This document shows, piece by piece, positions 10,204 through 53,024 of a DNA stretch of 64,000 nucleotides. The position numbers were made by a program, and so were the translations under genes. This DNA is from Yuukianura sp. NJ FZ-2021 (Eukaryota), in assembly GCA_046563655.1 (NCBI GenBank), contig CM102284.1, forward strand, positions 7,688,001 through 7,752,000, read 5' to 3'. Each line of letters opens with the position of its first letter. The stretch's first letter is position 1. Under the pieces are notes generated by a model that made no database searches, was not told where the DNA came from, and saw nothing but the letters and a program-made list of their open reading frames with translations.

Positions 10204-11991
10204 ATGTTTCAAAATTTTTACGTCCCTTTAGCAGTATATTTAGTCTTTAGCGCTATAATAGCACCGGTTTGGAGTTACGGTAAAGACGGATGCCGCGGGT
10301 CAACGTCCAGACATGTTGACCCCACGAATTGTCACAGTTATTTCCAGTGTATCGGTGGAGTCCGCTATCGCGCACGGTGTGAACCTGGCATGGCCTTTAC
10401 CAAACTTACACAAAAATGTGAAATATCAGTCCGTACGCCATGTTCTGCCAACAAGCTCACTGGTCATAGCATGGTCGGCAAGAAATGTTCAGTTAACAAT
10501 GAAATCAAGCCAAGCGAACTTGAGTGTGACAAGTATCTTCTGTGTCGTGTCAGAACTTACATTGCTCTGACATGTCCATTTGGCCTCATCTTTTCAAACA
10601 TCAAGTATCGTTGTGTCCTGCCGCCAAATCCATGCACGACAGTTGCTGAACAAGCGGCAAACACGACTTTGAAGGAAATGGAACTGAAAAAAGAAGAAAA
10701 TCCGTACATAGGAATCTGTGATAACAAAATTAATCAAACCGTGGCAGAACCATTTGATTGCTCATTTTACATTATGTGTGAAGAGGATCGCGGTGAAGAC
10801 GGAAGTGTCCAGGCAGCTATGTCTGTTCTGGAGTGTCCCAAAGGCACTCTTTTTAGTGTCACAGACAGTAAATGCATAAGTCCACAGTCCGTGTTCTGTG
10901 ACCAACGTTACAGGATGATGAATCTGTACGGTCCGGATGTACTTCCAACAGCTATGGGCAGGTCTTTTGGCCGAAGTGTGTTGTCGAACAATACGAGTCC
11001 AAGGAAACCAAAGTTTTGGGTCCAACCGGGGAAGTATCGAGCCATATCCAAGTCAAGTCCTGCAAATGAAACTGATAAAAGTGATACTTCCAACAAAACG
11101 AGTACAAATAGTACTGGAAATGGAGTTGTTACTACCGTAGTCAATGGTTTCATTATCCAGAAGCCTCTGGTTGCTGAACGTCCAACTCCAGTTGACGAGG
11201 ATCATGGATTTGATTCGTCTCCGATAGGATCCGGTCGAGGTCGAGCCAACGAGTCGTCTGCGAGTAACCCTGATGGTCGTTCCTTCCGTTCCGGCAAAGG
11301 TAAGGTCAGTTCCGAATCTTCAGAAGAAACCGGAAAACCGATATCGGGAAACGGTAAACCGAATTCCAGCAGTGGCAGTACCGGAACTGGAACCGGCAAC
11401 TACAAAAATACAGCCCAAAAAAGTTTAATTACAAACAACATCAACAATATTAATGGATCAAATCACCAGCCAATCGTCGTCAACATCATCCTCGACGAAA
11501 ATCACAGAGTCCATGGAATGTCGTCAACCAAAGGGAAGAAACCAAAGAAAAGAATCACAGTTGCTGTAAAAGATTCAAACGAAACGCCTGGTTACAAACG
11601 ATATGAAAAATCTGAACGGTACAAGAAATTCGAACCTTCTCGAACCGGTACTCGTCCGAAACCGTTTACCGGAACTCCGGAAGACTCTGACTATGTTTCC
11701 CAGGAGTCCGATGAAGACGAACCGTTCAAATTTGACAAAAGTAGGCCGAGGGGTCCCAAGCGCCGGACACTTCTGGAGGATTATCATGCGATTCGGAATG
11801 GACAGCGATTCAATTCCACGGCGGATGACATTTTGTATTACGGCGAGGACGAGTACTACATCGGAGACTCCGTTGAAAATGGCACTGCAATTCCAACCAA
11901 ACCAAATAGATTAGAATCGTCATTAGAGTTGACTCATCACGTGTATAGATCTGGATCACTACCTAAACAGAAATTACCAAAAAAGGCTTAG
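10204..11991 (+). CDS. Secreted protein with three CBM14 (peritrophin-A) domains and a long Ser/Thr/Gly/charged low-complexity tail
   Basis: 595-aa single-exon ORF with a signal peptide and three 6-Cys domains (e.g. DPTNCHSYFQC..CEPGMAFTKLTQKC). Confidence 0.85.
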   Translation: MFQNFYVPLAVYLVFSAIIAPVWSYGKDGCRGSTSRHVDPTNCHSYFQCIGGVRYRARCEPGMAFTKLTQKCEISVRTPCSANKLTGHSMVGKKCSVNNEIKPSELECDKYLLCRVRTYIALTCPFGLIFSNIKYRCVLPPNPCTTVAEQAANTTLKEMELKKEENPYIGICDNKINQTVAEPFDCSFYIMCEEDRGEDGSVQAAMSVLECPKGTLFSVTDSKCISPQSVFCDQRYRMMNLYGPDVLPTAMGRSFGRSVLSNNTSPRKPKFWVQPGKYRAISKSSPANETDKSDTSNKTSTNSTGNGVVTTVVNGFIIQKPLVAERPTPVDEDHGFDSSPIGSGRGRANESSASNPDGRSFRSGKGKVSSESSEETGKPISGNGKPNSSSGSTGTGTGNYKNTAQKSLITNNINNINGSNHQPIVVNIILDENHRVHGMSSTKGKKPKKRITVAVKDSNETPGYKRYEKSERYKKFEPSRTGTRPKPFTGTPEDSDYVSQESDEDEPFKFDKSRPRGPKRRTLLEDYHAIRNGQRFNSTADDILYYGEDEYYIGDSVENGTAIPTKPNRLESSLELTHHVYRSGSLPKQKLPKKA

Positions 11992-27134: not shown

Positions 27135-28872
27135 TTAGTTGCGGGCTCTCCAGTTGTCACTGGTTTCAGCCTCCGAGTTACGACGGTTTCTGTTGAAGAA
27201 GTTGGTGTTGATCCATTCGCGGTGTCTCTGTTGGTTGTGACGAAAAGGTTGTGAAGTTGCTGACGGTGAGTTGTGGTGAATGTTGAGTCTCCAATTTGGA
27301 ATTTCATTGGCCTCTCGACTGCTACTGTGAAATCCACTGCCAAAGCGGTTACGTCCTCGATTCATCAAGCTTCCATTTCTAACAGGAGAGTCATCATCGT
27401 CCGACAGAAGGAACACATGAGACGGAATGCGTGGCAGTTGATGTTGGATCATTGACCAATGGTCGTAGGGTTCACAGGCTTCACGGAATCTGTCCAGTGT
27501 TTCTTCTGGAGTCATGTGAGTAGAAGCGACACGTTGCGGTTTTGGGCAAGGAGTGGACGTTCGCTGATTCGTACTGGGCTGGTCGCCTCTGTCACCGCGA
27601 CGAACGGGAATGAAGAAATCTTCGTCCCAACAAGTCGGTGTCGGGAGTGGAAATGGAGCGATAATCCCACGTCTAAAGACGAAAAACGACAATAAAACGT
27701 CGAAACACGAAAATTGTATTTTCAAATAGTAATGCTTTTTTTACGGTGGTTTGAGGTAGTGTTGGATCAAGATTCGTTTCTCTCGTGCTCGCAGCATTTG
27801 TTGTCGCATTTCCTTGGTCGTAGGGGGTTTGGCCCACTGGATTTCCAGTGCCACTCCGCGGACTTTGAATCCATTGAGTCCCTCTTTAGCCTTGGCAGCA
27901 TCCGCTCTCTCAGCGAAGTGAATGAAAGCGAAATCCTTGATTTTCTTGACACGGTCTAGTGGTCCGAATTCTTCAAACAGGAGTCTTAGCTCCCCCTCAG
28001 TTACGGCTGCTGGGATGTGTCGCACGTACAGAATTTGAACCTTGGACATCGTTGCATCATCTACTTCTTGTTCCGGATCGGCCCAGTCTACCATGACTGC
28101 AAATAGTGAAATTAACTTAGATTAATTTGCAATTTGTTGACTTAATTTAGTTCGCTTGTTGTTTAGTGAAGTAGTAATTACCATCACATCCAAAGATTTT
28201 AGAATCACGAGTGGACAATCGACGTTTTGCGGCGGCTGCAGCACGGTGAGTCTCGTAATCGAGAAAGCAAAATCCACGGTTCTTCTTGCCGTCATCCGGT
28301 GAGTAGTAAATGATAACTTCTTTTAGACCAGCTGAAACGTCAAAGATTCGACAAAATTACACTTGATTATTCAGTTACTCAATAACTAATCAATTAGTTC
28401 AATCACGTTTCCTACGATACTTACGTGCTTTAGTCGCAAATTCTCGAAACAGTTCCGCCTGTCCCTTGGCCTTTGGAATGTTACCGATGAACAGACGTGT
28501 ATTCGGTACCGAGCGCGTCACCTTGAGATACTGCCGATGTCGTACCTGGCGACCGTTCATTTTCATAATCGCTTTAGCAGCATCCTCATGTCGTACAAAA
28601 GTGATGAAAGCGAAGCCTTTGTGCAGTCCAGTCACTGGAAACTTCGGAAATCGAATTTCCCGTATTTCGCCAAAAGAACTGAACAGAGTGCGCAGTTCAG
28701 CCTCGTTCACCTCCTTTGGTATGCGACCACAAAATACCTCAGCTTCAGCAGCATGGCAACTAGCAGTCTCTTCTTCTTGTTGATGCCCGGGCGACCGACC
28801 TTGACCTTGGACATGGTCCCCTTGATCTCCTCTGTCCCTTGGAGACGATACTGATCCTTGGACCGAGGCCAT
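27135..28872 (-). CDS. Three-RRM RNA-binding protein, hnRNP Q/R (Syncrip)-like
   Basis: EVFCGRIPK, HKGFAFITF, NTRLFIGNIPK, GLKEVIIYYSPDDGKKNRGFCFLDYETHRAAAAAKRRL, VDWADPEQEVDDATMSKVQILYVR, RVKKIKDFAFIHF, WAKPP. Four exons. Confidence 0.85.
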
Positions 28873-32487: not shown

Positions 32488-33944
32488 CTGGACTCAGTAT
32501 CGGATGACGATCCATTTCCCAAATCGATAATTATACCATCTTGATTTGTTCTTATAAAGGTATTTGCTAAGTTTTCCGTTTCCATGGTTAGGTTTTCTAA
32601 TTCAATGACATGCCTTTATAATATAGCCTAATAAATTCTTTCCCGAGTCCCAAGAATCCATCTTCCGAACCAATATTCAGCAAAATTACGCGCTTTCCTG
32701 CTCCTGCTCTATCGGTCACATTCAGATAGTCTATGGGAATATCCGAATGCTTCATGTGTCCCAACTTCACTTCGTTCTCAAATTCTATTTTCTCTTCTAG
32801 AAACGTTAGCACTGTACTTTGAATCATCTCCTTCGATTGCCAGGAAAAAGATTTCCCTTTACCCATTATTTATGGAAGTAACAATTAATTAACGAAAGAG
32901 AAATCACGTTAAACATAAGATAAAATGAAAATAAGGAATTAGGGGTTCTCACGGTCCAAAAAAGAATCCGATTCTTTTTCGAAAAGGATCTTTTTTTCTC
33001 GGTTTATAATCCGCCTCCGTGAGTGGACCGTTTCTGCGAAAGATTATAATCAGTGGAATGTATTAGGAAATAATAGCTATAGTCAAGTAGAAGGGAATTT
33101 CCACTTTTCCAAGATGGCCGCCCCCCCCCCCCCGGGCGCCCGCTAGGCGCACGGGTAATGGGTATTGGAAATTGGGATAGGCCAAGTGCCCTATATAGAG
33201 GATCGTCACCCCTCCCCCTTTGGTCCCCTCCTAATTCACCAAGGCCACCCCCCCCCCATCCTCCTTCCGCCAGATAGTCTCACCTCAGTATTCTCACCTC
33301 CCCCTATTCCACTAAGCTCCCCCCCCCCCCTGCCTGGCTCCTCCTGCATACAAGTATGAGATTATTAACTCCATCGTTTACCCCAGATTTGGCCTGCCCC
33401 CCCCCCAGAATCTCAAGGTCGCGCCAATCCTTTAACCCCCCAAGGTCACGGCACCTGTAATAGGGAAATGAACTTTCACCAGGATCCCGACATTGACTTT
33501 ATCCACATCTAACCTCGAGGTCACACGATTCCCTACACCCCATTCTCAAGGTCACGTTTGGGAGAAAAGCTTTCACCACACGACTTGAACTTGACCCATC
33601 TCAAGGTCACTTGCGCAAATGAAAAACATTAGCTTTACCAAATGACTTTTACTTACCCCGAGATCAAGGAAGCAATTTTGAGGGTGCGGTGTAAACTCAA
33701 ATGCAACCATTGGGCATGCGCCCGTTATAGTACAACACTATGCATGGTCGTAGCATATAAAAGTAAATGCAAATTCAAAATGTGGCACTTGTATGGTGGG
33801 AATAGGTGGCAGGTGCATTTCCCGTGTTCCCCTCGCTTCCATTACCCGTCCCTTTCTCCACAGACTGCTTTCTCTGACCAACAGACAATACCCCCACATT
33901 ACCACATGATTTACACATGTACACATTACACAATACCACATGAT

Positions 33945-34085
33945 TTTAAAAAAAAATCAATTTTTGAAAAAAAAAATCAATTTTTGAAAAAAAATCAATT
34001 TTTGAAAAAAAAATCAATTTCTAAAAAAATCAATTTTTGAAAAAAAAATCAATTTTTGAAAAAAAATCAATTTTTAAAAAAAAAA
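33945..34085 (+). repeat. A/T-tract tandem repeat (AAAAAAATCAATTTTTG-like, ~16-18 bp, ~8 units) in the left arm; mirror copy at ~38627-38785
   Basis: Directly visible. Unit number and length differ between the two arms. Confidence 0.85.
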
Positions 34086-34995
34086 GAATTTTTTCTACCA
34101 CTTCCATTAGCTGTCGTTTTGATAACTGGGAAAGCCGCGAGGACGGGAAAACTCAAATGGGTCAAAGGTCAAATATCCGAGTTACGCTACGCTCGGCAAG
34201 TACCACTACGCCGGGGGCGTGGCAAGCCTCAGTTTGGCAAGTCAGTCTTTAGCATTTCAATTGGGGGCGTGGCCAAAGGAAATGGTGCAATATGATTGGT
34301 CGACGACACTACATTGTACGCACGGCCATAAGACAAAGTTTCACGGTTTACATGTTGGCGGTTAGATTGACACTGAGGTCACACGTTAAGTTTTCGTGGT
34401 CTGCAATAAAGAATTGAGGCGATTACATTTTTTTTGTGAACTGGATTTGTATTGACTTAGAGCTTACCTCACAACAGGGGTGCTTGAATTTGGGTGAGAT
34501 CGTCTATACAAAGTAGCATCCCGCTTACAAGAATCCTATTACAGGAATATACTTTTTGCCGAATCAGAATGGCACCTTGTCAATTACTGAGGCCCCTCTG
34601 GGGTGAAACAATCCAATTTGAAATGACAAATGTGGAGCCCTTATATTTCATTCTGGCGGCATGTTCTGCCAAATCGTGAACGCTTAACGCTGCACTTTCC
34701 CTCAACTTGTGAAACCCATTGATGATAAGCGTAGAGAATTTAGTGGTGCATACTTTAATGCATTGTAAAAGCTGGTATCATTGCTTTGGCTGCCAGATTC
34801 GTACGCGGCATGAAAAAGTTGGCCTCTAACCGTCAAGAATTTACAATCTACAGCACATTAAACTTTTCTACGAATAAATGTACACAAACACAAATGTGAC
34901 ATGACATGGAAAATTGGTTTATTTTACAAATTGTGAAAAAAATTTTTTTACAAAAACAAGGCAAAGACTTAGCGATAGGTTATAGTAAAGTTCAC

Positions 34996-35562
34996 TTAGA
35001 AAAATATTTTTTTAGTAGAGGCAAGTCCGGTAATTCCATTTCCTGCAATTTGCAGCGTTTCATCTTCGATGCCGACGACAAGCACAACTAGATCTTTTGG
35101 AATCGCAGCGTCAAAGTTTATTTCCAGTCCAAGTTGTCCCATTCGTCCTGCAGTAAATCCATCTGCCCACAAGTCTTGAAGGTCAAATGCAAAGACTGCG
35201 TTGCCGTCGACAAATTGTTGATAGGTAATGTCGTTTCCACCACTTCCAATTAGTTTGCACAAGTTTTGATATGCCAGCATGTAGTTTTTGTCTTTGAAAA
35301 CCATTTCGTCAAACACAACAGGTCTGTTTTCAAACTTTAACACAATCCGGTTTACGCCATGAGGTTTAAAATTGAATGGTGAACTTTGAACTTTTCCGTC
35401 GTAAACGTCTCGTTCAATAAATGCGACGAAAACAGCTTTGGGAATCTTCGAAGACTGGTAAACTCTAGCCAATTCGATACAGTTCAGGCTGGCCGGAACG
35501 TATTCTACTTGCATGTGCGCCTGATCGTAATTCTGGACGGCCAATGAAAACAAAATCTGCAT
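34996..35562 (-). CDS. Inverted partial copy of the capsid gene (C-terminal 177 aa) with its own ATG and an 11-aa novel N-terminus
   Basis: 188-aa ORF identical to the capsid C-terminus from YDQAHMQ onward except P>A and R>K. Expression unknown. Confidence 0.5.
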   Translation of the reverse strand: MQILFSLAVQNYDQAHMQVEYVPASLNCIELARVYQSSKIPKAVFVAFIERDVYDGKVQSSPFNFKPHGVNRIVLKFENRPVVFDEMVFKDKNYMLAYQNLCKLIGSGGNDITYQQFVDGNAVFAFDLQDLWADGFTAGRMGQLGLEINFDAAIPKDLVVLVVGIEDETLQIAGNGITGLASTKKIFF

Positions 35563-35722
35563 GGGATATATTTTGTGAGCTCCTGCTAATGCACGTTACG
35601 ACGGCATTTAACAATTGGGTTGCCGATGGATTCGTGTCAATTTAAGACGTACTTTACCATTGAATAAAATCAGTAGTGAGTTGGACGTCGGTGAGTGCAC
35701 AGTACTGAGTTCCAGTGGAAGC

Positions 35723-36259
35723 ATGGCAGAGGATTCTCCAGTGGAAGATTGCTTGTCCGTCGGCACAACGGCAATGGAACCGGATAAAGTACTTCCAAAC
35801 CCAAGGAACAATAGAAAGCGGACGTTTTCAATAGTAGACGATGAGAAGTTTCATGGTGTTGAACAAAGTGACAACAAATTGACTCCCAAAATTTCAAGGA
35901 AAAGAACCTCTCGTTCATTTAAACCGCTTGGGACATCCACTATTGTTCCGAAAAAGCACTCTGATGCGTCGATTTCGGAATTATTTTCCAAAAGGCTGTC
36001 AATAACGCGCCCAAAATCAACACAAAAGTTGAAAAGAAGGCGCCACAATTCGCAATTGACTCAAAAATTACCAAAAAGTGCATCACGGAAGCAAACGACC
36101 ATATCGGATTCGAGCAAAAAGTCTCTCCCTAATTGTACTAAAATGAGCAAATGTCTGGACAATAGTGCACCTACGCTGAAATTTGGCAACAATACTGGAA
36201 GAAATGAGACCTTTTTGGAGAAATATCTCGAAAATTCACGTCAAAAGGCATTAAAATGA
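35723..36259 (+). CDS. Basic Lys/Arg/Ser-rich ORF of unknown function in the Maverick core
   Basis: Open frame 35615-36259 with first ATG at 35723 (178 aa). NLS-like RKR and KRRR clusters. Lies directly upstream of the capsid gene. Confidence 0.45.
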   Translation: MAEDSPVEDCLSVGTTAMEPDKVLPNPRNNRKRTFSIVDDEKFHGVEQSDNKLTPKISRKRTSRSFKPLGTSTIVPKKHSDASISELFSKRLSITRPKSTQKLKRRRHNSQLTQKLPKSASRKQTTISDSSKKSLPNCTKMSKCLDNSAPTLKFGNNTGRNETFLEKYLENSRQKALK

Positions 36260-36413
36260 AGACATTTGTGACCAAGTAGTCAGTCGTAATTTAAAGTTCA
36301 ACGGAGCAACACGCTGAGTTTTCTGTGCAATAACACAGCATTTTAACATTTAAACCCTTCAGTATTGAATTCGCACTCATCCAGGCAACATCTCCTTTAT
36401 TTTTCTCCCAAAT

Positions 36414-37712
36414 ATGGAAATTGACGTCCCAATAAACTCCAAGTTGGTCAGAAAAAGCCCCAAATTTAACCTTTTCTCGCGACCCGACACCGAGGTGTCC
36501 TATATTTTGGGCAACTACTTGAAAGTAAAACCGTTCGGACCGACAAAGGATGACGGACCAATTTATTTTTTTGTGCAACAAATGTCGTATTTGGACTTGT
36601 CGGATTCCTTTTTGAAATTTGTCGTCTCAATTAAGAAGAGTGATGGCACCAAACTTACCGACACTGACAAGATTGCACCAGAAAATTTATTTTTTCACGC
36701 ATTTATTGACGATTTTAAAGTCACAGTCAACAACTGCCAAGTAATCGCACAAGGCTTCAAGGCATATTCGTACGAGTCATGGCTGCTCACACAACTAATT
36801 AATGGAATTGGGTCCAAGTCGAGTACATTGTCGAAAGAAATTTACTACTCTGGAAATGTAGTGGACAACTATGATGACACTAACGTCAGCTACAAGACGC
36901 GATTAGACTTGGCAAAAAAGAGTCAGATGTTTGAAATGATTGGGCGACCGAATCTTGGAATTTTCACAACGCAAAGGTTGTTTCCACCAAAAACTGAATT
37001 CAATTTCGAAATAAAAAGGAGCGAACCGTCATTCTGTCTGAGAGGACCGGAGACTACTACTCAATACAAAATTGAAGTCGAATCGGCCGAGTTTTATGTT
37101 CGACAAGTCTACCCAAGCGAAAAAGTGATGACACAAATACGACAAGGGTTCGCAAAAAACAAAATTGCTTGCTACACTTATGATCAGGCGCACATGCAAG
37201 TAGAATACGTTCCGGCCAGCCTAAATTGTATCGAGTTGCCGAGAGTTTACCAGTCTTCAAAAATTCCTAAAGCTGTTTTCGTCGCATTTATTGAACGAGA
37301 CGTTTACGACGGAAGAGTTCAAAGTTCACCATTCAACTTTAAACCTCATGGCGTAAACCGGATTGTGTTAAAGTTTGAAAACAGACCTGTTGTGTTTGAC
37401 GAAATGGTTTTCAAAGACAAAAACTACATGCTGGCATATCAAAACTTGTGCAAACTAATTGGAAGTGGTGGAAACGACATTACCTATCAACAATTTGTCG
37501 ACGGCAACGCAGTCTTTGCATTTGACCTTCAAGACTTGTGGGCAGATGGATTTACTGCAGGACGAATGGGACAACTTGGACTGGAAATAAACTTTGACGC
37601 TGCGATTCCAAAAGATCTAGTTGTGCTTGTCGTCGGCATCGAAGATGAAACGCTGCAAATTGCAGGAAATGGAATTACCGGACTTGCCTCTACTAAAAAA
37701 ATATTTTTCTAA
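36414..37712 (+). CDS. Maverick/Polinton major capsid protein (PY, double jelly-roll)
   Basis: Intact 432-aa ORF collinear with the Polinton MCP pattern: YLDLSDSFLKFVVSIKKSDGT, PENLFFHAF, YSY..WL..L, EMIGR, FYVRQV.PS, IPK..FVAF, YDG..SPFNFKP, AY..L, GNDITY..F.DG.AVFAFDL, GQLGLEINF. Confidence 0.85.
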   Translation: MEIDVPINSKLVRKSPKFNLFSRPDTEVSYILGNYLKVKPFGPTKDDGPIYFFVQQMSYLDLSDSFLKFVVSIKKSDGTKLTDTDKIAPENLFFHAFIDDFKVTVNNCQVIAQGFKAYSYESWLLTQLINGIGSKSSTLSKEIYYSGNVVDNYDDTNVSYKTRLDLAKKSQMFEMIGRPNLGIFTTQRLFPPKTEFNFEIKRSEPSFCLRGPETTTQYKIEVESAEFYVRQVYPSEKVMTQIRQGFAKNKIACYTYDQAHMQVEYVPASLNCIELPRVYQSSKIPKAVFVAFIERDVYDGRVQSSPFNFKPHGVNRIVLKFENRPVVFDEMVFKDKNYMLAYQNLCKLIGSGGNDITYQQFVDGNAVFAFDLQDLWADGFTAGRMGQLGLEINFDAAIPKDLVVLVVGIEDETLQIAGNGITGLASTKKIFF

Positions 37713-40079
37713 GTCAACTTTACTATAACCTATCGCTAAGTCTATGCCTTGTTTTTGTAAAAAAAAAAATTTCACAATTTGTAAAATAAACCAATTTTCC
37801 ATGTCATGTCACATTTGTGTTTGTGTACATTTATTCGTAGAAAAGTTTAATGTGCTGTAGATTGTAAATTCTTGACGGTTAGAGGCCAACTTTTTCATGC
37901 CGCGTACGAATCTGGCAGCCAAAGCAATGATACCAGCTTTTACAATGCATTAAAGTATGCACCACTAAATTCTCTACGCTTATCATCAATGGGTTTCACA
38001 AGTTGAGGGAAAGTGCAGCGTTAAGCGTTCACGATTTGGCAGAACATGCCGCCAGAATGAAATATAAGGGCTCCACATTTGTCATTTCAAATTGGATTGT
38101 TTCACCCCAGAGGGGCCTCAGTAATTGACAAGGTGCCATTCTGATTCGGCAAAAAGTATATTCCTGTAATAGGATTCTTGTAAGCGGGATGCTACTTTGT
38201 ATAGACGATCTCACCCAAATTCAAGCACCCCTGTTGTGAGGTAAGCTCTAAGTCAATACAAATCCAGTTCACAAAAAAAATGTAATCGCCTCAATTCTTT
38301 ATTGCAGACCACGAAAACTTAACGTGTGACCTCAGTGTCAATCTAACCGCCAACATGTAAACCGTGAAACTTTGTCTTATGGCCGTGCGTACAATGTAGT
38401 GTCGTCGACCAATCATATTGCACCATTTCCTTTGGCCACGCCCCCAATTGAAATGCTAAAGACTGACTTGCCAAACTGAGGCTTGCCACGCCCCCCGGCG
38501 TAGTGGTACTTGCCGAGCGTAGCGTAACTCGGATATTTGACCTTTGACCCATTTGAGTTTTCCCGTCCTCGCGGCTTTCCCAGTTATCAAAACGACAGCT
38601 AATGGAAGTGGTGGAAAAAATTCTTTTTTTTTTAAAAAATTGATTTTTTTTCAAAAATTGATTTTTTTTCAAAAATTGATTTTTTTTTCAAAAATTGATT
38701 TTTTTTCAAAAATTGATTTTTTTTTCAAAAATTGATTTTTTTTCAAAAATTGATTTTTTTTTCAAAAATTGATTTTTTTAAAAAATCATGTGGTGTTGTG
38801 TAATGTGTACATGTGTAATCACGTGGTAATGTGGGGATATTGTCCGTTGGTCAGAGAAAGCAGTGTGTGGAGAAAGGGACGGGTAATGGAAGCGAGGGGA
38901 ACACGGGAAATGCACCTGCCACCTATTCCCACCATACAAGTGCCACATTTTGAATTTGCATTTACTTTTATATGCTACGACCATGCATAGTGTTGTACTA
39001 TAACGGGCGCATGCCCAATGGTTGCATTTGAGTTTACACCGCACCCTCAAAATTGCTTCCTTGATCTCGGGGTAAGTAAAAGTCATTTGGTAAAGCTAAT
39101 GTTTTTCATTTGCGCAAGTGACCTTGAGATGGGTCAAGTTCAAGTCGTGTGGTGAAAGCTTTTCTCCCAAACGTGACCTTGAGAATGGGGTGTAGGGAAT
39201 CGTGTGACCTCGAGGTTAGATGTGGATAAAGTCAATGTCGGGATCCTGGTGAAAGTTCATTTCCCTATTACAGGTGCCGTGACCTTGGGGGGTTAAAGGA
39301 TTGGCGCGACCTTGAGATTCTGGGGGGGGGCAGGCCAAATCTGGGGTAAACGATGGAGTTAATAATCTCATACTTGTATGCAGGAGGAGCCAGGCAGGGG
39401 GGGGGGGGAGCTTAGTGGAATAGGGGGAGGTGAGAATACTGAGGTGAGACTATCTGGCGGAAGGAGGATGGGGGGGGGGTGGCCTTGGTGAATTAGGAGG
39501 GGACCAAAGGGGGAGGGGTGACGATCCTCTATATAGGGCACTTGGCCTATACTAATACCAATACCCATTACCCGTGCGCCTGGCGGGCGCCCGGGAGGGG
39601 GGGGGGGTGCCATTTTGAAAAAGTGGAAATTCCCTTCTACTTGACTATAGCTAATAATTACAATCAACCTTCACAACTTGTTTCTTTGTTGTAAGGACCT
39701 TCACAAACCAACTCACCTTGTGCTTCTTTTCCTTGTTCTCTTCCTTGTCCTACTTAGTATAAAAGCCACACTGTCACTCTCATTCTGGTTCTCAGTTTCT
39801 TATGTGTACTTGCCACTCAGCCACTTGAATAAATCTTATTCAGCATACACAACATTTTGGCGACGAGAGTAAAGAAAAAAAAACTATCAATTTTCCATTC
39901 TGGACCTGGACGCTAGCGAGTTCCTAACCGCATCTTACTATCTTTTTGATACTTGGGCAGAGTTTTTCCAAGGACAAATTAGTCGAGAAGAGCAGTTGAA
40001 TCGCATTTACGACACTTTCGCAACCATCATTGCTACCAACAGCCCATCACCGTCACGCCATTTGGCACCACCCACTGCC

Positions 40080-43000
40080 ATGTCAACAATAGGAACACTT
40101 CCTGCTTTTGACCATGGGAAAGATGACTTTTAAGATTGGGTGAATGTGTACAAATCCTTTTTGCTTGCAAATGGACTCGACTATAATTCAGCAACAGACC
40201 AGAAGAGATGCATTGGAATTTTCCTGTCCTCAATTGGAATTGGTACGTACAATCTGCTTACAAATTTACTTTCTCCAACACCGCCACTTGAGAAAAAAGT
40301 TGAAGATGTTGTCGCAACACTCAAGGCTCATTTCAAGCCAACGCCAAAAGCAATAGCCGAACGTTTTAAATTCTCTACTCGCAAACAGCAAACTGGAGAA
40401 TCCGCAACCACTTTTTTGGCTGAATTGCGGAAGCAAGCGGTTCATTGTAAATTTGAAACTACCCTGTCGGAGAGACTGCGGGATTAGTTTATTTTTGGCT
40501 TGTCAAGTGAAACGGCCCAACGTCGAATTTTCACTCGAGATGATACCCTTACGCTTGAAAACGCTTTGAAAATCGCTGTTTCTCAGGAAGTTGCCGAGGC
40601 CGGTACTTCTACAATTCGAGAATATAATTCAACCAGTGGGGTTAATTATGCCTCTGCCTCACGTCCTTTCCAACGTCCTACACCTCAGTACGGTCATAAC
40701 AATGGATCTGCATCCAAATTCGCACCAAATCCAAAAGGTGGGAGGAGCCAAGGGAGGAGTCAATGGAGGAGCCAGCCGTTGCGCAACCAATCAAAATCTT
40801 CATGTCCAAATTGTGGCTCGACGCAACACAAGAACCCTAAGGATTGTCCTCACAAAGACGCAAGCTGTTTTGCATGTGGGAAAAAAGGACATTTCCGCAA
40901 GTTCTGATTTCCGCAGAAAATCCACCCATTACGTAGAAGTCGATGATGATTCTGCCGTATCAAACGTCAATTCCATTTATCAAGGACCGGGTAACTTGTC
41001 AGAATTCAATATTCGAGTAGAAATCAATGGCTTCCCTCATAAGATGGAGTTCGACAGCGGGTGCAAAGAGAGTCTCCTCAGCGCTGATTTCTGGAGAAAT
41101 ACGCTAGGTGCTCCACAGCTTCGTAGAAGCAACGCAGTTTTTCGGACCTTTACTGCTCAACAATTTCGCCCCTTGGGGAAATTGGAAGTAACCCTGGTTT
41201 ACAAAGGTCAGTCCAAGAAGCATTCCTTTTCCGTAGTAAAAGGAATGCACTCTCTCTTCGGACGAGATTTAATCCGACTTTTCGGATTGGAGTAGACACT
41301 CGCGGAACTTTCCCAGTGTAACTATGTTCCTGCCAAGCAGAAGTTGACCTTAGAATCGCTTTTGGAAGAATACAAGAACGTATTCTCGCCGTCGTGCGTA
41401 CAAATCAAAGGAGTTAAGGCCAAAGTTATCCTCAAGGACGACGCTGTTCCGAAGTTTCTGAAAGCTCGCCCTATTCCATTTGCACTTGTTCCAAAGTAGA
41501 TGCCGAGTTGGATCTAATGGAGAGGTCTGGAGTCATTCACCGAATTGAACACTCCGATTGGGCCTCACCTCTCGTGGTAGTACCCAAACCAAATGGCAGA
41601 GTCCGGATCACTGGTGATTTCAAGCACACTGTCAATTCGCAGTTACACATCTCGCAGTATCCCCTACAGCGGGTTGACGAGCTACTCTCAACGGTCTCTG
41701 GAGGAAACACGTTTTCAAGACTGGACGGGCCGGACGCCTTCCATCAAATTGAACTTGACGAGGCAAGCAAGTCGTTTATGGTCATAAACACACACCGCGG
41801 ACTTTATCGGTACAAAGTTTTGCCCCAGGGTATCGCTTCCTCTCCAGCGATTTTCCAGGAGTTTATGGACAAGCTTCTGAAGGACATTCCCATGGCTGGA
41901 TCATTCATGGACGATTCCATCTGTACTGGTTTCACCGATGCCGGGCACTTGACGACCCTACAGAAGATCTTCCAGCGCATGCGAGAGTTCAACTACCGAC
42001 TTTCGAAATCCAAATGCCAATTTTTCCAAAAGTCGTGGGACTACATTGGATTTGTGATCACCAAGGATGGACTGAAGACGTCTCCGAACAAAGTAAAGGC
42101 GGTACAAGCCATCCAACGTCCGACAACAGTAACCGAAGTAAAATCCTTCCTAGGATTGGTAAATTTCTACGGGAAATTCATACCTACTTTGGCGGACAAA
42201 TGTGCTGTTCTGTATGAACTCACGAAGAAAGATGTCCCATTCAACTGGACCAAACAATGTCAAATGGGATTTGACAAAATCAAACAAGCACTCGCCTCCG
42301 CTCCAGTGCTTTGTCATCACTCTCCACGACTTCCAATCGGAATTAGATGTGACGCTTCTCCGAGAGGACTCGGAGTGATCCTGTTCCATCGCTTCCCAGA
42401 TAACTCTGAACGTCCAGTTGCCTTCGCGTCAAAGGTTCTTTCTTCAGCTGAGCAACGCTACTCACAGATTGAGAAAGAAGCCCTCGCTATTGTCTTTGGA
42501 GTTAAGAAATTCTTCCAATTTCTTTGTGGACGAGACTTTATTGTTGTCACGGATCACCAACCATTGCTTTCAATTTTGGGTCCGAGTTCACAAGTTTCAT
42601 CTTACACTGCAACTAGACTTCAGAAATGGAACCTTTTTCTGAGTCAGTTCAACTACTCCATACAATACCGCAGAACACTGGATCATGGTAACGCTGACGC
42701 TCTTTCACGTCATCCGGTTCACACCGATGGTGAAAACACTGAGGTCACAGAGGTCGAATTGGAGGTCAACCTTGTTGCATCTTCTACTCTGGATATTCTT
42801 CCCGTGACAGCCAGAGCAATCAAAACTGTAACTTCACGAGATAAGTTACTCTCCTCTGTTTATCGCTATGTTTCCAGCGGATGGCCTTCCAGCATGCCTA
42901 AGGTGGATTCACTTTACCCGTACTTCCTCAGACGCGAGGAACTGACAATTGTTCAAGACATTATCCTGTGGGGAATTCGAGTTATAATTCCAACTTCGCT

Positions 43001-44069
43001 CCAGAAAAAGATTTTGGACGAACTACACGAGTCTCACTTTGGAATAGTGAGAATGAAGTCGCTAGCAAGACAATACGTCTGGTGGCCTGGCATTGATGTC
43101 CAAATCGAAGAGTTGTGCAAACGCTGTGAACGCTGTGTTCAAAACCGAGCTAATCCACCCAGTTCGCCACTGCATCCATGGGAGTTTCCAGAACGTCCCT
43201 GGCAGCGTGTTCATGTGGATCTGGCTGGACCATTTTTGAACAAGATGTGGCTGATCATCACCGATGCTCATTCGAAATGGCCGGAGGTTTATAACATGAA
43301 CAACAATACCAAAAGCCTGGCAGTGATTTCGAAGATTCGAGAATCAATTTGCAGATTTGGAATAATGCAGCAGATCGTAAGTGACAATGGTCCACATTTT
43401 ACTTCGCAAGAATTCAAGAGTTTCTGCGAATCCAATGGCATTCGTCACACCACCAGCTCTGTTTATCACCCCCGTTCGAATGGTGAAGCTAAACGTTTCA
43501 TCCAAACGTTTAAGAAGGCACTCAAAGCCGCAGGGGAAGATAAAGATTTGGCACTTCAGAGATTTCTGTTTACCTACCGGGTAACACCGCATTCGACAAC
43601 CGGACAATCTCCAGCGGAATTGCTACAAGGAAAAAAGTTACGAACTTTACTGGACTTGGTTCGCCCTGACGTTCGAGAAAAAGTGGGCTACTCTCAGTTC
43701 AAACAAAAGACGAACTACGACAAGAAAACGAAAGTTCGAGAATTCCAGGTTGGACAACAGATCTGGGTCAAAACGTTTTCGAAAAACGCTCCGAAATGGT
43801 CATCCGGAACTATCCTTCGTCAGACGGGGCCAGTGACTTTCCAGATTGATGTCGATGGAGAACAGATGAAACGACATGCAGATCAAATCCTGGACGCTCC
43901 AAAAACGAAACCAGAAGTTTTCGATGACGATGACCAAGATAAAAAGTCGGATCAACTGGAACTGCCAGAGGTAGCTGCAGAAGCTCCAGTTACAGCAGAA
44001 GCTCCTGCTTCAGCAGAACCCAGATATCCACAACGGGCACGACCACCTCCTGGAACTTATAAGGTTTAG
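40080..44069 (+). pseudogene. Gypsy gag-pol: two zinc knuckles, protease (DSG), RT (FMDD), RNase H, integrase
   Basis: ATG 40080. Stops or frameshifts at ~40485, ~40905, ~41293 and ~41497. Integrase H-H-C-C, DLAGP and SDNG present, but the catalytic Glu reads SNGEAKR (E>K). Confidence 0.92.
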
Positions 44070-44711
44070 GTTAACAGGACACAACCTTTCTTCCGTATGC
44101 TTTTTGCATGAATGCAGTTTCTTTAAATGGAACCATGTTTCCGTACTTTCAATTTCTATGTAGTTTCCAAACTTAAAGAGGAAGGTAGTGTAATGTATTA
44201 GGAAATAATTACAATCAACCTTCACAACTTGTTTCTTTGTTGTAAGGACCTTCACAAACCAACTCACCTTGTGCTTCTTTTCCTTGTTCTCTTCCTTGTC
44301 CAACTTAGTATAAAAGCCACACTCTCACTCTCATTCTGGTTCTCAGTTTCTTATGTGTACTTGCCACTCAGCCACTTGAATAAATCTTATTCAGCATACA
44401 CAACAATCAGTTTCTTTGGAGCGGTGATAGGAATTTTCAAATAAGTAAATAACCTACACGTCACTAATTAAGTCCGGTTGTTTATTTGATTATGACTTAT
44501 AAAATTATGATTTGATTATGAACTTCTCACCTTGTAGGCTTCATACTTTGCAGCAAAGTAATCAGTCATCACTGTTTCAGTTTGATTTGTCCATTGGGAG
44601 TGGGACAACGATGGAGTGGCCACACTATCACTAAAGGGTTGGCAGACCCTTGGCTTGACAGTTAGTTAGATTAGATTAGTTAGTAACTAATTAAACTGGA
44701 TCTAAGAACTA

Positions 44712-50800: not shown

Positions 50801-51380
50801 TAAATTGGTTCCTTTACCCTCCATTTCGAGCCTTAGACGAGCATTTTTCCTAAAATTTTCCCCCTACCCGTTTGACCCACCAATTAGGCATAACAAATTT
50901 GCAAAATTTCAGCCCCTGAATTCGGTTTAATCTTTTCTCATGTTTTCAGAGTCCCTCCCCGCTTTTCCCCATAGTTTTGTTCTATTTTCAGAGATTGGAC
51001 TCCATTCGGCACCAATGTCAATATTTTTCAAAATTGACGTCAGGCCCACGCTACCCGCTTGTACCCCTTGGTTTTTTCGAGCCGGGACGGCTCTGGGCTC
51101 GGCGGCGGGGTCATGAGGGGTTAAAGCCTCTGCAACCCAACCCTAAGTCAACCAGATGTTCGTCTCCGTCTCCACTCGTCACAACTTCAAGTCAGTCGTC
51201 TCCCTCCCCTCTTCCAGTCAACATCTCATCTCCGTCATCTCTCATTTTACATTTCAATTAGTCAATTAACTTAAACTTAACTTTAACTAAACCTAAAATA
51301 AAAGGAGTATCAACTCCATTTCCCTAGCATCACATGAGTTGTTCCTGTCTTGTTTCTTGGGCTTACCCATTAGCCCGTCA
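47806..51380 (+). mobile_element. Non-autonomous (pol-less) LTR retroelement
   Basis: LTRs 47806-48067 and 51114-51380 (TGAGGGGTTA..CCCGTCA). 4-bp TSD GTAG (47802-05, 51381-84). PBS TGGTGGACGAG at 48070. G-rich tract before the 3' LTR. Confidence 0.88.
48926..50185 (+). pseudogene. ORF with an N-terminal CCHC zinc knuckle, Pro-rich linker and unknown C-terminal domain; one in-frame TAG
   Basis: ATG 48926, then RTPDGRPICNFCRFPGHI*RTC (TAG 49034-36), in frame with the 362-aa ORF 49097-50185. Confidence 0.65.
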
Positions 51381-53024
51381 GTAGGGTGAGAAAGTGGAAT
51401 GGAGTAAGGACCTGGAAGTCGTCTGGAGAGTCGGAGAGTGGAGTGAGCGGCCTGGAGTTGAGGTTGGCAGAGGTTCTGGCTAGCAGAGTAACGAACTCTT
51501 CAATGGAAGGGTGGTGACCTTGGGTGACCTTGGCAAGGTTCATCTTCATACTTTTCACGACTGCTTCCCAAATACCGCCGTGATGTGGTCCGTAGGGTGG
51601 AGAAAAGTGAAAGTTGATGCTTTCACCAACGCAGAAGAGGTTGACCTTGTGGAGGTGTTGTGGAGATGAGATGAGACGCTGTAGTTCGGCCATCTCGTTT
51701 TTGGCGCCAAGGAAGTTTCTGCCTCCATCGCAGAAAATGTCACTTGGTGCATTTCGGAGTGAAATGAAGCGTTGGAAGGCGGAGAGAAAGTCTGGAGTGC
51801 TCAGTCCTCCAGAAAATTCCAGATGAATGGCCTTGGTGGCCATACAAACAAAAACACACACATACGATTTGAGAATGCGCGGTTTCCTTCCAGTGGTTGC
51901 AGCGACTTCAAACGGACCTGCGTAGTCCGTTCCCACTTTCACGAAGGGAAAGTCAGTGGTTATACGAGCAGGAGGAAGTTGACCCATGAGTTGCAGACTT
52001 GGTGTTGGATTGGCCTTGAAGCACTGAATACAGCGGCGGAAGACCCATTTGCAGAGGTCATGACCCCGTTGGATCCAGAACTCGGTCCTGACGAGAGAAA
52101 GGAGCAACTTCGGTCCTGCGTGTAGGTGGTGTTGGTGAAAGTCGCGAACAATGGCCAAAACGAAAGCGTTGATTTGTTGTTGTTCCGTGTTGCTTGGGCG
52201 GGCGACGACGGAATTTTGGAAGTAAGATGGGGTGACGCATGTGGAGTGATGTGAGGTGACGTCATTTGGTGGATTTGATTTGGTGGCACTGGTGGAAGGC
52301 GTGGACTGAGTTTCCTTTGGTTTAGGATTGGAGTGACCTTGACTCTGGTGTGAGTCAGGCTTAGAGGACGTGGAGTCCTTGGAGTCGAACTTGTTGCAAT
52401 GTCTGCAGAAAGTTTTGTAAAGACAATCTGCAGTTGAATGTCCATGACGAAGGCACAAGTTGCACAATTTGCATTTGTGCACTAGTGACCATTTGTCATT
52501 GAGCGAAAGACCTTGAAATTCCGGGCAATGGAATAGGCGATGTTCTGCAGAGCACTTCGGACATTTAGTTGTTAGCGGTTGTTTGCCCTGGGTGGCGTTG
52601 ACATGGTGGGTAGCGTTGACATGATGCGTAGAGGATGTGGTGGGTTTGACCTTGGATTGTTTCGTGGGTTCGGAGAGAGCACTGGATCTGCGTTCTAGGA
52701 ATTCCAGGAATTCCGAAAGAACTGGGAGGTTATCGTCTTCTGAAAGCAGCCACTGCTTTCGTGTTTCTGCGTCTAACTTTGTTTGGACCCAGTAAACAAT
52801 GAAGACGTCCCATTGGTCCACGGCCAGTCCCATTTGCTTGAGAGAAATTGAAGTTTGATTGACAAGGTCAATGACTTTCCGTAAGCCGGAAGTGGAATCA
52901 GAGACTGTCTGGAGAGAGAAGAGCTTCTGGAGGTGGGAGAAAGCGATTTCTCGCTTTTTGTTGTATCTTTTTTCCACCAACGCCCAAGCCTCAGTGAAAC
53001 TTAGGTTGGTTGGCGGAAATGATG

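Follow-up and report, generated by a model that had tools for sequence, protein, structure and literature searches.

The 188-amino acid half-capsid reading frame at 34996-35562 is probably an incidental product of the architecture of the mobile element in which it lies, and is carried as a passenger. It is a partial gene copy at the terminal-repeat border of a stripped-down Maverick, found in a window of 64,000 nucleotides (the whole stretch of DNA that was analysed, from Yuukianura sp. NJ FZ-2021, contig CM102284.1). The capsid-gene-only element occupies 33075-39652, a length of 6,578 bp, has ends of the form AG...CT and is flanked by a perfect 6-bp target-site duplication, with its termini reading 5'-AGCTATAG at 33075 and CTATAGCT-3' at 39652. 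The parts of the element and its borders are as follows.

33069..33074, no strand: left target-site duplication AATAAT, present as a single AATAAT in the intact 3' LTR
33075..35530, no strand: left terminal inverted repeat, 2,456 bp, starting 5'-AGCTATAG and pairing with 37178-39652
33944..34093, no strand: 18-bp A/T-rich tandem array of the left arm, 8.2 copies, with its counterpart at 38626-38786
34918..34923, minus strand: AATAAA signal 3' of the half-capsid ORF, the mirror of 37785-37790 by the register of the arms
34996..35562, minus strand: half-capsid ORF, 188 aa with an ATG start, made of 11 core-encoded residues and a copy of capsid residues 256-432
35371..35527, no strand: diverged patch at the inner boundary of the arms, holding all 11 coding differences between them
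35531..37177, no strand: unique core of 1,647 bp that separates the arms
35615..36259, plus strand: 214-codon open frame that precedes the capsid gene, basic and Ser-rich, with its first ATG at codon 37
36414..37712, plus strand: major capsid protein gene, 432 aa, double jelly-roll, Maverick/Polinton family
37178..39652, no strand: right terminal inverted repeat, 2,475 bp, starting at the third base of capsid codon 255 and ending CTATAGCT-3'
39653..39658, no strand: right target-site duplication AATAAT, flanking the other end of the insertion

The element sits within a Ty3/gypsy-type LTR retrotransposon (33054-44405, with a 5-bp duplication ATCAG), having inserted into its 5' LTR 21 bp from the LTR start. 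The reverse transcriptase, RNase H and integrase domains of the retrotransposon lie within 41508-44069, and its LTRs are ~98.6% identical with 3 mismatches in 217 aligned bases (1.4%); the retrotransposon is young. The 3' LTR at 44183-44405 is intact and serves as the empty site, as it is uninterrupted at the insertion point and has a single AATAAT, which makes the boundaries of the 6,578-bp element exact. LTR copies that lack the element are also present in the public DNA runs X1 and X4, where X1 to X3 are from one organism (A) and X4 is from another (B). Contigs of X1, X3 and X4 join the left flank of the retrotransposon directly to sequence like that found 3' of the 3' LTR, therefore a site without the retrotransposon, either empty or paralogous, also exists. 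Elsewhere in the window an ORF at 51370-52980 on the minus strand may be a fragment of a BEL/Pao-type retroelement, given its DUF1759 and integrase zinc-binding domains, and there are two host-type genes, one with three peritrophin-A chitin-binding domains (10204-11991, plus strand) and one for an RRM protein (28399-28872, minus strand), both of which agree with the genome being that of an arthropod or another invertebrate.

The two arms of the element are ~97.5% identical over ~2,480 aligned bases by blastn, with an inner block (34213-35530 and 37178-38495, 1,318 nt) found at 99% identity by a repeat search. When the arms are compared in the fixed register in which position i faces position 72708-i, their identity ends at 35530/37178. 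An inverted repeat of this kind is far beyond chance. Alignment of the arms gave 2,479 columns with 34 substitutions and 27 indel columns, with most of the indels and length differences located in the 18-bp tandem arrays (33944-34093 and 38626-38786). The substitutions are all confined to four patches (33109-33176, 33863-34096, 34939-34993 and 35371-35527) that are ~7-12% diverged, including 8 substitutions in the 68 bp of the non-coding patch 33109-33176, and the ~1,900 bp of the arms outside these patches have 0 substitutions. As read from the sequence, such patchiness points to gene conversion or to recombination with sibling elements.

The 432-aa protein is a double jelly-roll capsid protein, an identification based upon its predicted fold and upon its relatives in Maverick neighbourhoods, and one which upholds the initial annotation. 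No match was found for it when PDB was searched by sequence, and no Pfam or PHROGs family covers this protein, the half ORF or the frame of 214 codons. Of 2,922 candidates in a word-indexed search only 6 proved to be relatives, the best of which share 44-46% identity and are 437-541 aa long, and a profile built from 7 sequences matched 12,441 cluster representatives at E<=0.001 and 3,290 at E<=1e-30. Among the 150 profile matches listed nearly all are ~420-460 aa, and among the members that carry names are hypothetical proteins from the genome of a mollusc. In ESM-Atlas the closest clusters consist of hypothetical proteins of arthropods and nematodes of ~450 aa, with one of these clusters having the Pfam DJR-like_dom on 15% of its members.

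Structural comparison was made with an AlphaFold model of the full capsid protein, built from a 7-row alignment (pLDDT 67, pTM 0.71). Foldseek matched this model to the major capsid proteins of SGIV, PBCV-1, EhV, mavirus and Sputnik with E ~1e-14, with 244 PDB matches at E<=0.001 and double jelly-roll capsids on top, and in BFVD a protein of Cotesia bracovirus ranks first (8.5e-20), ahead of entries for adomavirus LO7, MELD-virus and adintovirus. Alignment of model residues 25-426 to the PBCV-1 major capsid protein by VIA-align gave a Z of 24.1 (341 aligned residues, rmsd 3.5), with Z of 23.4 for Faustovirus, ~18 for mavirus and 15 for PRD1 P3. The protein is therefore predicted to fold, within a single chain, into two jelly rolls of eight strands each, one after the other.

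In metagenomes, 8 loci that encode relatives of the capsid protein were found, with the profile scan using 5 closer sequences. The capsid protein matches five of them (L002, L003, L005, L006 and L008) by tblastn with E of 5e-35 to 5e-15 and 24-27% identity, and in L002, L003 and L005 other genes of Maverick type come directly after the capsid gene.

Neighbouring gene: ORF of ~185 aa, Peptidase_C5-like (adenain-like), E 0.0018, which is below the Pfam cut-off
Neighbouring gene: rve integrase, 3.8e-16
Neighbouring gene: ORF of ~250 aa
Neighbouring gene: Pox_A32-type ATPase, 2e-6

L006 and L008 have large ORFs on the opposite strand, one of which is of polymerase size (1,239 aa). Judged from these sequences, the gene set at the context loci is that of a Maverick/Polinton, and the protein of the window is thus homologous to capsid genes in Maverick neighbourhoods at five loci. 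A quick maximum-likelihood tree, built with 45 sequences, puts the window protein in a clade of six members with P0001-P0004 and P0007 (SH-aLRT 100), separate from the five context loci, and its end branch is longer than any other in the clade (0.83 vs 0.28-0.49).

Whilst the capsid gene, the 6-bp duplication and the terminal inverted repeats with AG...CT ends are those of a Maverick/Polinton, the element has neither a protein-primed polymerase B nor an rve integrase of its own. When the 47 ORFs of the 8 related loci were compared with the window only the 8 capsid ORFs matched, and these only at the capsid gene and the half copy, so that this comparison revealed no gene for a polymerase, integrase, ATPase, protease or penton in the element, and no ORF of the element matches a Pfam family. 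As only capsid ORFs match, the element must be non-autonomous and have been integrated in trans, with the supply of the integrase by another element being what we infer from this. It is a non-autonomous, capsid-gene-only derivative of a Maverick/Polinton and not a full member of the group. The dependence on a helper that had been assumed in the initial annotation is thus a fair inference.

Compared with a sibling copy, the 214-codon frame that precedes the capsid gene has 33 listed differences, 9 synonymous and 24 non-synonymous, one of which creates a stop, thus it is probably not a constrained gene, to judge from the letters, and may be leader or promoter DNA instead.

Compared with autonomous Mavericks/Polintons of animals (polintoviruses, adintovirus-like elements) the element differs in size, in its repeats and in where these end. 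One study gives a 6-bp target duplication, terminal inverted repeats and AG-type end motifs as hallmarks of Mavericks, with intact vertebrate elements being 12.7-24.6 kb long with repeats of 46-1,447 bp (PMC8097293). Against these figures the present element is only 6.6 kb, yet has repeats of 2.46 kb, and the border of its repeat lies inside the capsid gene. A capsid-only mini-element or a half capsid borne on a repeat was not described in the limited literature searched on Polintons/Mavericks and truncated capsids, with the accessible parts of the Polinton/Maverick papers covered including 10.1101/2025.02.07.637071, PMC6431247, PMC5499653, PMC3014272 and PMC11161782. In viral contigs a profile scan found no relative and the 21-base terminus of the element had 0 matches. 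A 16-base junction motif did occur at 107 loci in viral contigs, none of which encodes a relative; it was rejected, as the motif is a low-complexity word and the matches are chance ones.

The half-capsid ORF follows from where the repeat ends. Codon 255 of the 432-aa gene at 36414-37712 has its third base at 37178, which makes the left arm an inverted copy of the gene from Y256 to the stop, and by tblastn capsid residues 251-432 match 35544-34999 with 96.7% identity. The initial annotation had described the ORF as a copy of the capsid gene from this point with an in-frame ATG supplied by the core 11 codons upstream, 188 aa in all, and this was confirmed. The ATG (35562-35560) lies in the unique core with an in-frame stop 12 codons further upstream, and has a weak context with C at the -3 position. 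An ATG before a stop was obtained with a probability of 0.21 in composition-matched draws, and M261, inside the copied part, would supply a start even without the ATG of the core. As the arms are nearly identical an open half frame is to be expected; the half ORF as such is not beyond chance, unlike the repeat. The AATAAA of the capsid gene (37785-37790), 73 nt past its stop, is mirrored behind the half ORF.

The break was thought to fall near the start of the second jelly roll, just after a named linker segment that was taken to be a helix. In the AlphaFold model of the full protein a helix is indeed predicted for that segment, at 236-249, and is followed by a strand at 251-266. The placement of the break therefore holds to within ~5 residues, but in the model the cut is in the first strand of the second jelly roll, and not in the linker. 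Y254, which is Tyr in 37 of the 39 aligned family members, is Q in the half ORF, as the copy starts two residues later. There are ~22 of the 432 codon positions at which a cut leaves a whole barrel, and the border, as a single case, is indistinguishable from chance; a chance breakpoint is the simpler reading.

Modelled alone from a 40-row alignment, the half ORF gave a pLDDT of 84.2 and a pTM of 0.80, with eight strand segments of which the first is at 8-22 and the last at 178-180. In a search against structure representatives, residues 1-183 of the 188 in the model align to the C-terminal barrel of capsid proteins.

EhV-201 major capsid protein: target residues 319-492, Z 11.8
Sputnik: target residues 279-488, Z 11.5
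Mavirus: target residues 275-494, Z 10.1
PRD1 P3: target residues 254-390, Z 8.3
PBCV-1: target residues 215-436, Z 8.1

Since the model spans the C-terminal barrels of known capsids, the half ORF is predicted to encode the whole second jelly roll, as a domain that would be able to fold independently.

How might such an ORF arise without being selected for? As the repeat ends at codon 255, within the capsid gene, the genuine 3' half of this gene lies in one arm and a mirror copy of it in the other. Two routes may lead to this. In the first, a copy-back or strand switch, a linear genome with protein-primed replication would copy one end onto itself, with synthesis running from the right terminus leftwards to 35531, where the strand would switch and be copied back from 37178. 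The product of such a switch would be the reverse complement of 37178-39652 joined to 35531-39652, which is exactly the arrangement seen, and the left arm does correspond to the reverse complement of 37178-39652 joined to 35531 at a single switch point. Microhomology was looked for in the alignment of the junction, with only scattered matches beyond the end of the repeat. In the second route the terminal repeat would creep inward by recombination, as the borders of poxvirus inverted terminal repeats do, with the same end result. By either route the half frame would still be open due to the arms having been kept, or recently made, almost identical, the ATG would be supplied by core sequence through chance, and the whole element would have been integrated by an integrase supplied in trans; the half protein would presumably have no function of its own.

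There are parallels for part-genes at the borders of repeats. In the myxoma virus, the inverted terminal repeat (ITR) ends within the M156R ORF, and poxvirus ITRs are described as expanding and contracting, with changes in one myxoma ITR mirrored in the other and the repeats homogenised by recombination (PMC9973261). The border in the present element is like that of a poxvirus ITR in that a terminal repeat ends in an ORF and leaves part of a gene at both ends. Poxviruses are otherwise unlike it, being large and cytoplasmic with hairpin ends and another replication system, whereas the element is integrated and transposon-like and its partial copy is a whole domain. The borders of plastid inverted repeats carry truncated copies of genes such as ycf1 and rps19, which are regarded as pseudogenes. 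These too are partial genes due purely to the end of a homogenised inverted repeat, although within an organelle genome. Copy-back or snap-back defective genomes are found in linear DNA viruses, including adenovirus, and in RNA viruses, and have an inverted duplication of one end, a single switch point and a dependence on helper; unlike these, the element is integrated with a target duplication.

The reading of the half ORF as a by-product is thus favoured by the integration footprint, the identity of the capsid, the non-autonomy of the element, the near-identical arms, an ATG that is itself weak evidence and the lost Y254, along with the absence of an inverted capsid fragment from all 8 of the related loci (which are partial contigs of distant relatives) and the parallel with myxoma virus. 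In one of these loci, L001, the capsid is 49% identical and the 829-bp upstream part has no similarity to the core or the arms. Against the by-product reading are the synonymous bias between the two copies, a breakpoint that leaves a whole domain, the AATAAA kept with the half ORF and a patch that is more diverged than the LTRs.

These last points bear on an alternative, considered unlikely, in which the half ORF is kept as a gene and its divergent transcription from the core would yield a stand-alone second jelly roll. For such a gene it can be said that the frame is open with an ATG, that the 3'-end AATAAA signal has been kept, that the element is dependent on a helper, and that the isolated domain (pLDDT 84) aligns with the C-terminal barrel of eight double jelly-roll capsid or scaffold proteins with Z of at least 10, although an excised domain can be expected to model well in AlphaFold, which is uninformative about function. 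Single jelly rolls can serve in capsids as proteins of their own, as in P23-77-type viruses, where each capsomer is assembled from two such proteins, so that a lone vertical jelly roll can be a building block. In those viruses there are two co-evolved genes, unlike here, where only the second barrel is separate and there is no partner N-terminal half. Were the product made, it may dock on the capsid protein of the element itself or of a helper and cap or remodel capsomers, acting as a poison or a modulator of assembly, which again seems improbable.

A further point for a maintained gene is the pN/pS of 0.06 on the 11 differences between the arms. These 11 fall within the 531 coding bases that the copies share, all in codons 256-308, with 9 of them synonymous and only 2 non-synonymous (P276A and R301K). 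The bias has P = 4e-5 if both copies are free and P = 0.0025 if only the full gene is constrained. If the 11 differences arose between the arms themselves, the half copy would be under purifying selection, as judged from sequence. Divergence in the coding patch is 6.9%, higher than the 1.4% between the LTRs of the surrounding retrotransposon, which means that the patch is either older than the insertion or was imported. Two readings fit the data. The first is that the patches are old divergence between the arms that has escaped homogenisation, so that the half copy would have been constrained. The second is that the patches were imported from diverged siblings by recombination or template switching, with the coding tract coming from a functional full-length capsid gene. 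The import from siblings is favoured, because there are similar patches in the non-coding arms and because siblings of the right divergence exist. A maintained gene is thus weakened by the fact that conversion from the full-length gene of a sibling can bring in the synonymous bias and by the non-coding arms being equally patchy, whilst the bias stays as one unexplained hint against a mere by-product.

The siblings also bear on the start of the half ORF. Sibling copies that are 4-9% diverged are present over 35585-37969 in the runs of both organisms, hence the element family is common to the two, and a contig break at 35585 is shared by the runs of A and B. One sibling (X1 record 3, X2 record 12, X4 record 27) has a ~91% match to the core from 35585 rightwards and then diverges. 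The 30 letters reported for it to the left of 35585 are recognisably homologous to 35537-35560 but are without the ~24-base piece that bears the ATG, and in the frame of the half ORF these letters contain a stop with no ATG after it. It had been proposed that a half capsid that is expressed should keep its ATG and frame in other copies, and the piece with the ATG is missing from this ~9%-diverged copy, which is the one diverged sibling to have been seen; this goes against that proposal on what is thin evidence. The weak start context (-3 = C) and the loss of the conserved Y254 also count against a maintained gene. Two loose contig ends in run X2, at 35091 and 37185, were considered as alternative breakpoints and dropped, as they adjoin GATC and give GATCGATC, and they are probably ligation junctions of a proximity-ligation library and not rearrangement breakpoints.

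Of the original proposal that the element expresses a stand-alone single jelly roll able to affect the assembly of helper capsids, what stands is that the ORF models as a complete barrel, whereas that the protein is made or acts on assembly is not supported, with the ATG piece missing and Y254 lost. The half protein as a capsid poison is currently the less likely reading. A still bolder version, in which there is a lineage of capsid-only mini-Mavericks with the border fixed between the barrels, and each copy encodes a free second jelly roll that is under purifying selection and joins or blocks helper capsomers, is likewise doubtful.

A role for the long repeats themselves, as DNA or as RNA, is also given a small chance. 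They may act as a panhandle in replication, bring the element to a packageable length of ~6 kb, or, in read-through transcripts, form long hairpins that give small RNAs for the silencing of capsid genes. The arms being almost perfectly homogenised over ~1,900 bp would agree with such a role, and the presence in each arm of seven AGGTCA motifs in the same direction along with the 18-bp array makes the repeats more than stuffer. It leaves the border at the domain junction unexplained, although this has no need to be explained. The AGGTCA motifs have one orientation relative to the terminus, with left-arm sites at 33443, 33518, 33549, 33604, 34166, 34376 and 35180 and the mirror sites of the right arm within 37523-39280, and several of them are in the context CAAGGTCA, which we take to be that of a nuclear-receptor half-site. 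Seven copies in an arm were reached by 0 of 2,000 shuffles, and the motif is common across the window too (42 + 46). No Rfam family matched at its gathering score over 33000-39700.

That the palindrome is an artefact of assembly, or a rearrangement at the locus after a full-length Maverick had inserted, is highly improbable, since although palindromic joins are a known assembly error and no single contig among those listed from the public runs covers the element in full, there are 34 substitutions as well as indels between the arms, a public contig (X2 record 11) matches the left-arm-specific alleles exactly over 35287-35503, the terminus and target duplication are present at both ends, and the arms are separated by a unique core of 1.6 kb, unlike in typical fold-back artefacts.

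If the maintained gene were nonetheless to prove true, it would be the first instance in nature of a free barrel split off from a double jelly-roll capsid protein, serving as a split-capsid or dominant-negative fragment in the conflict between a satellite and its helper virus, and would have a bearing on the evolution of double-barrel from single-barrel capsids. If the simpler reading of the half ORF as a by-product is true, the element would be a clean and datable example of long terminal repeats creating partial copies of genes, with the young LTR around the element providing its own empty site, and would serve as a warning to annotators that an intact ORF in the arm of a repeat need not be a gene. 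The element itself is a well-bounded and recently mobile capsid-only mini-Maverick, and elements of this kind imply that capsid genes can ride as satellites on autonomous Mavericks.
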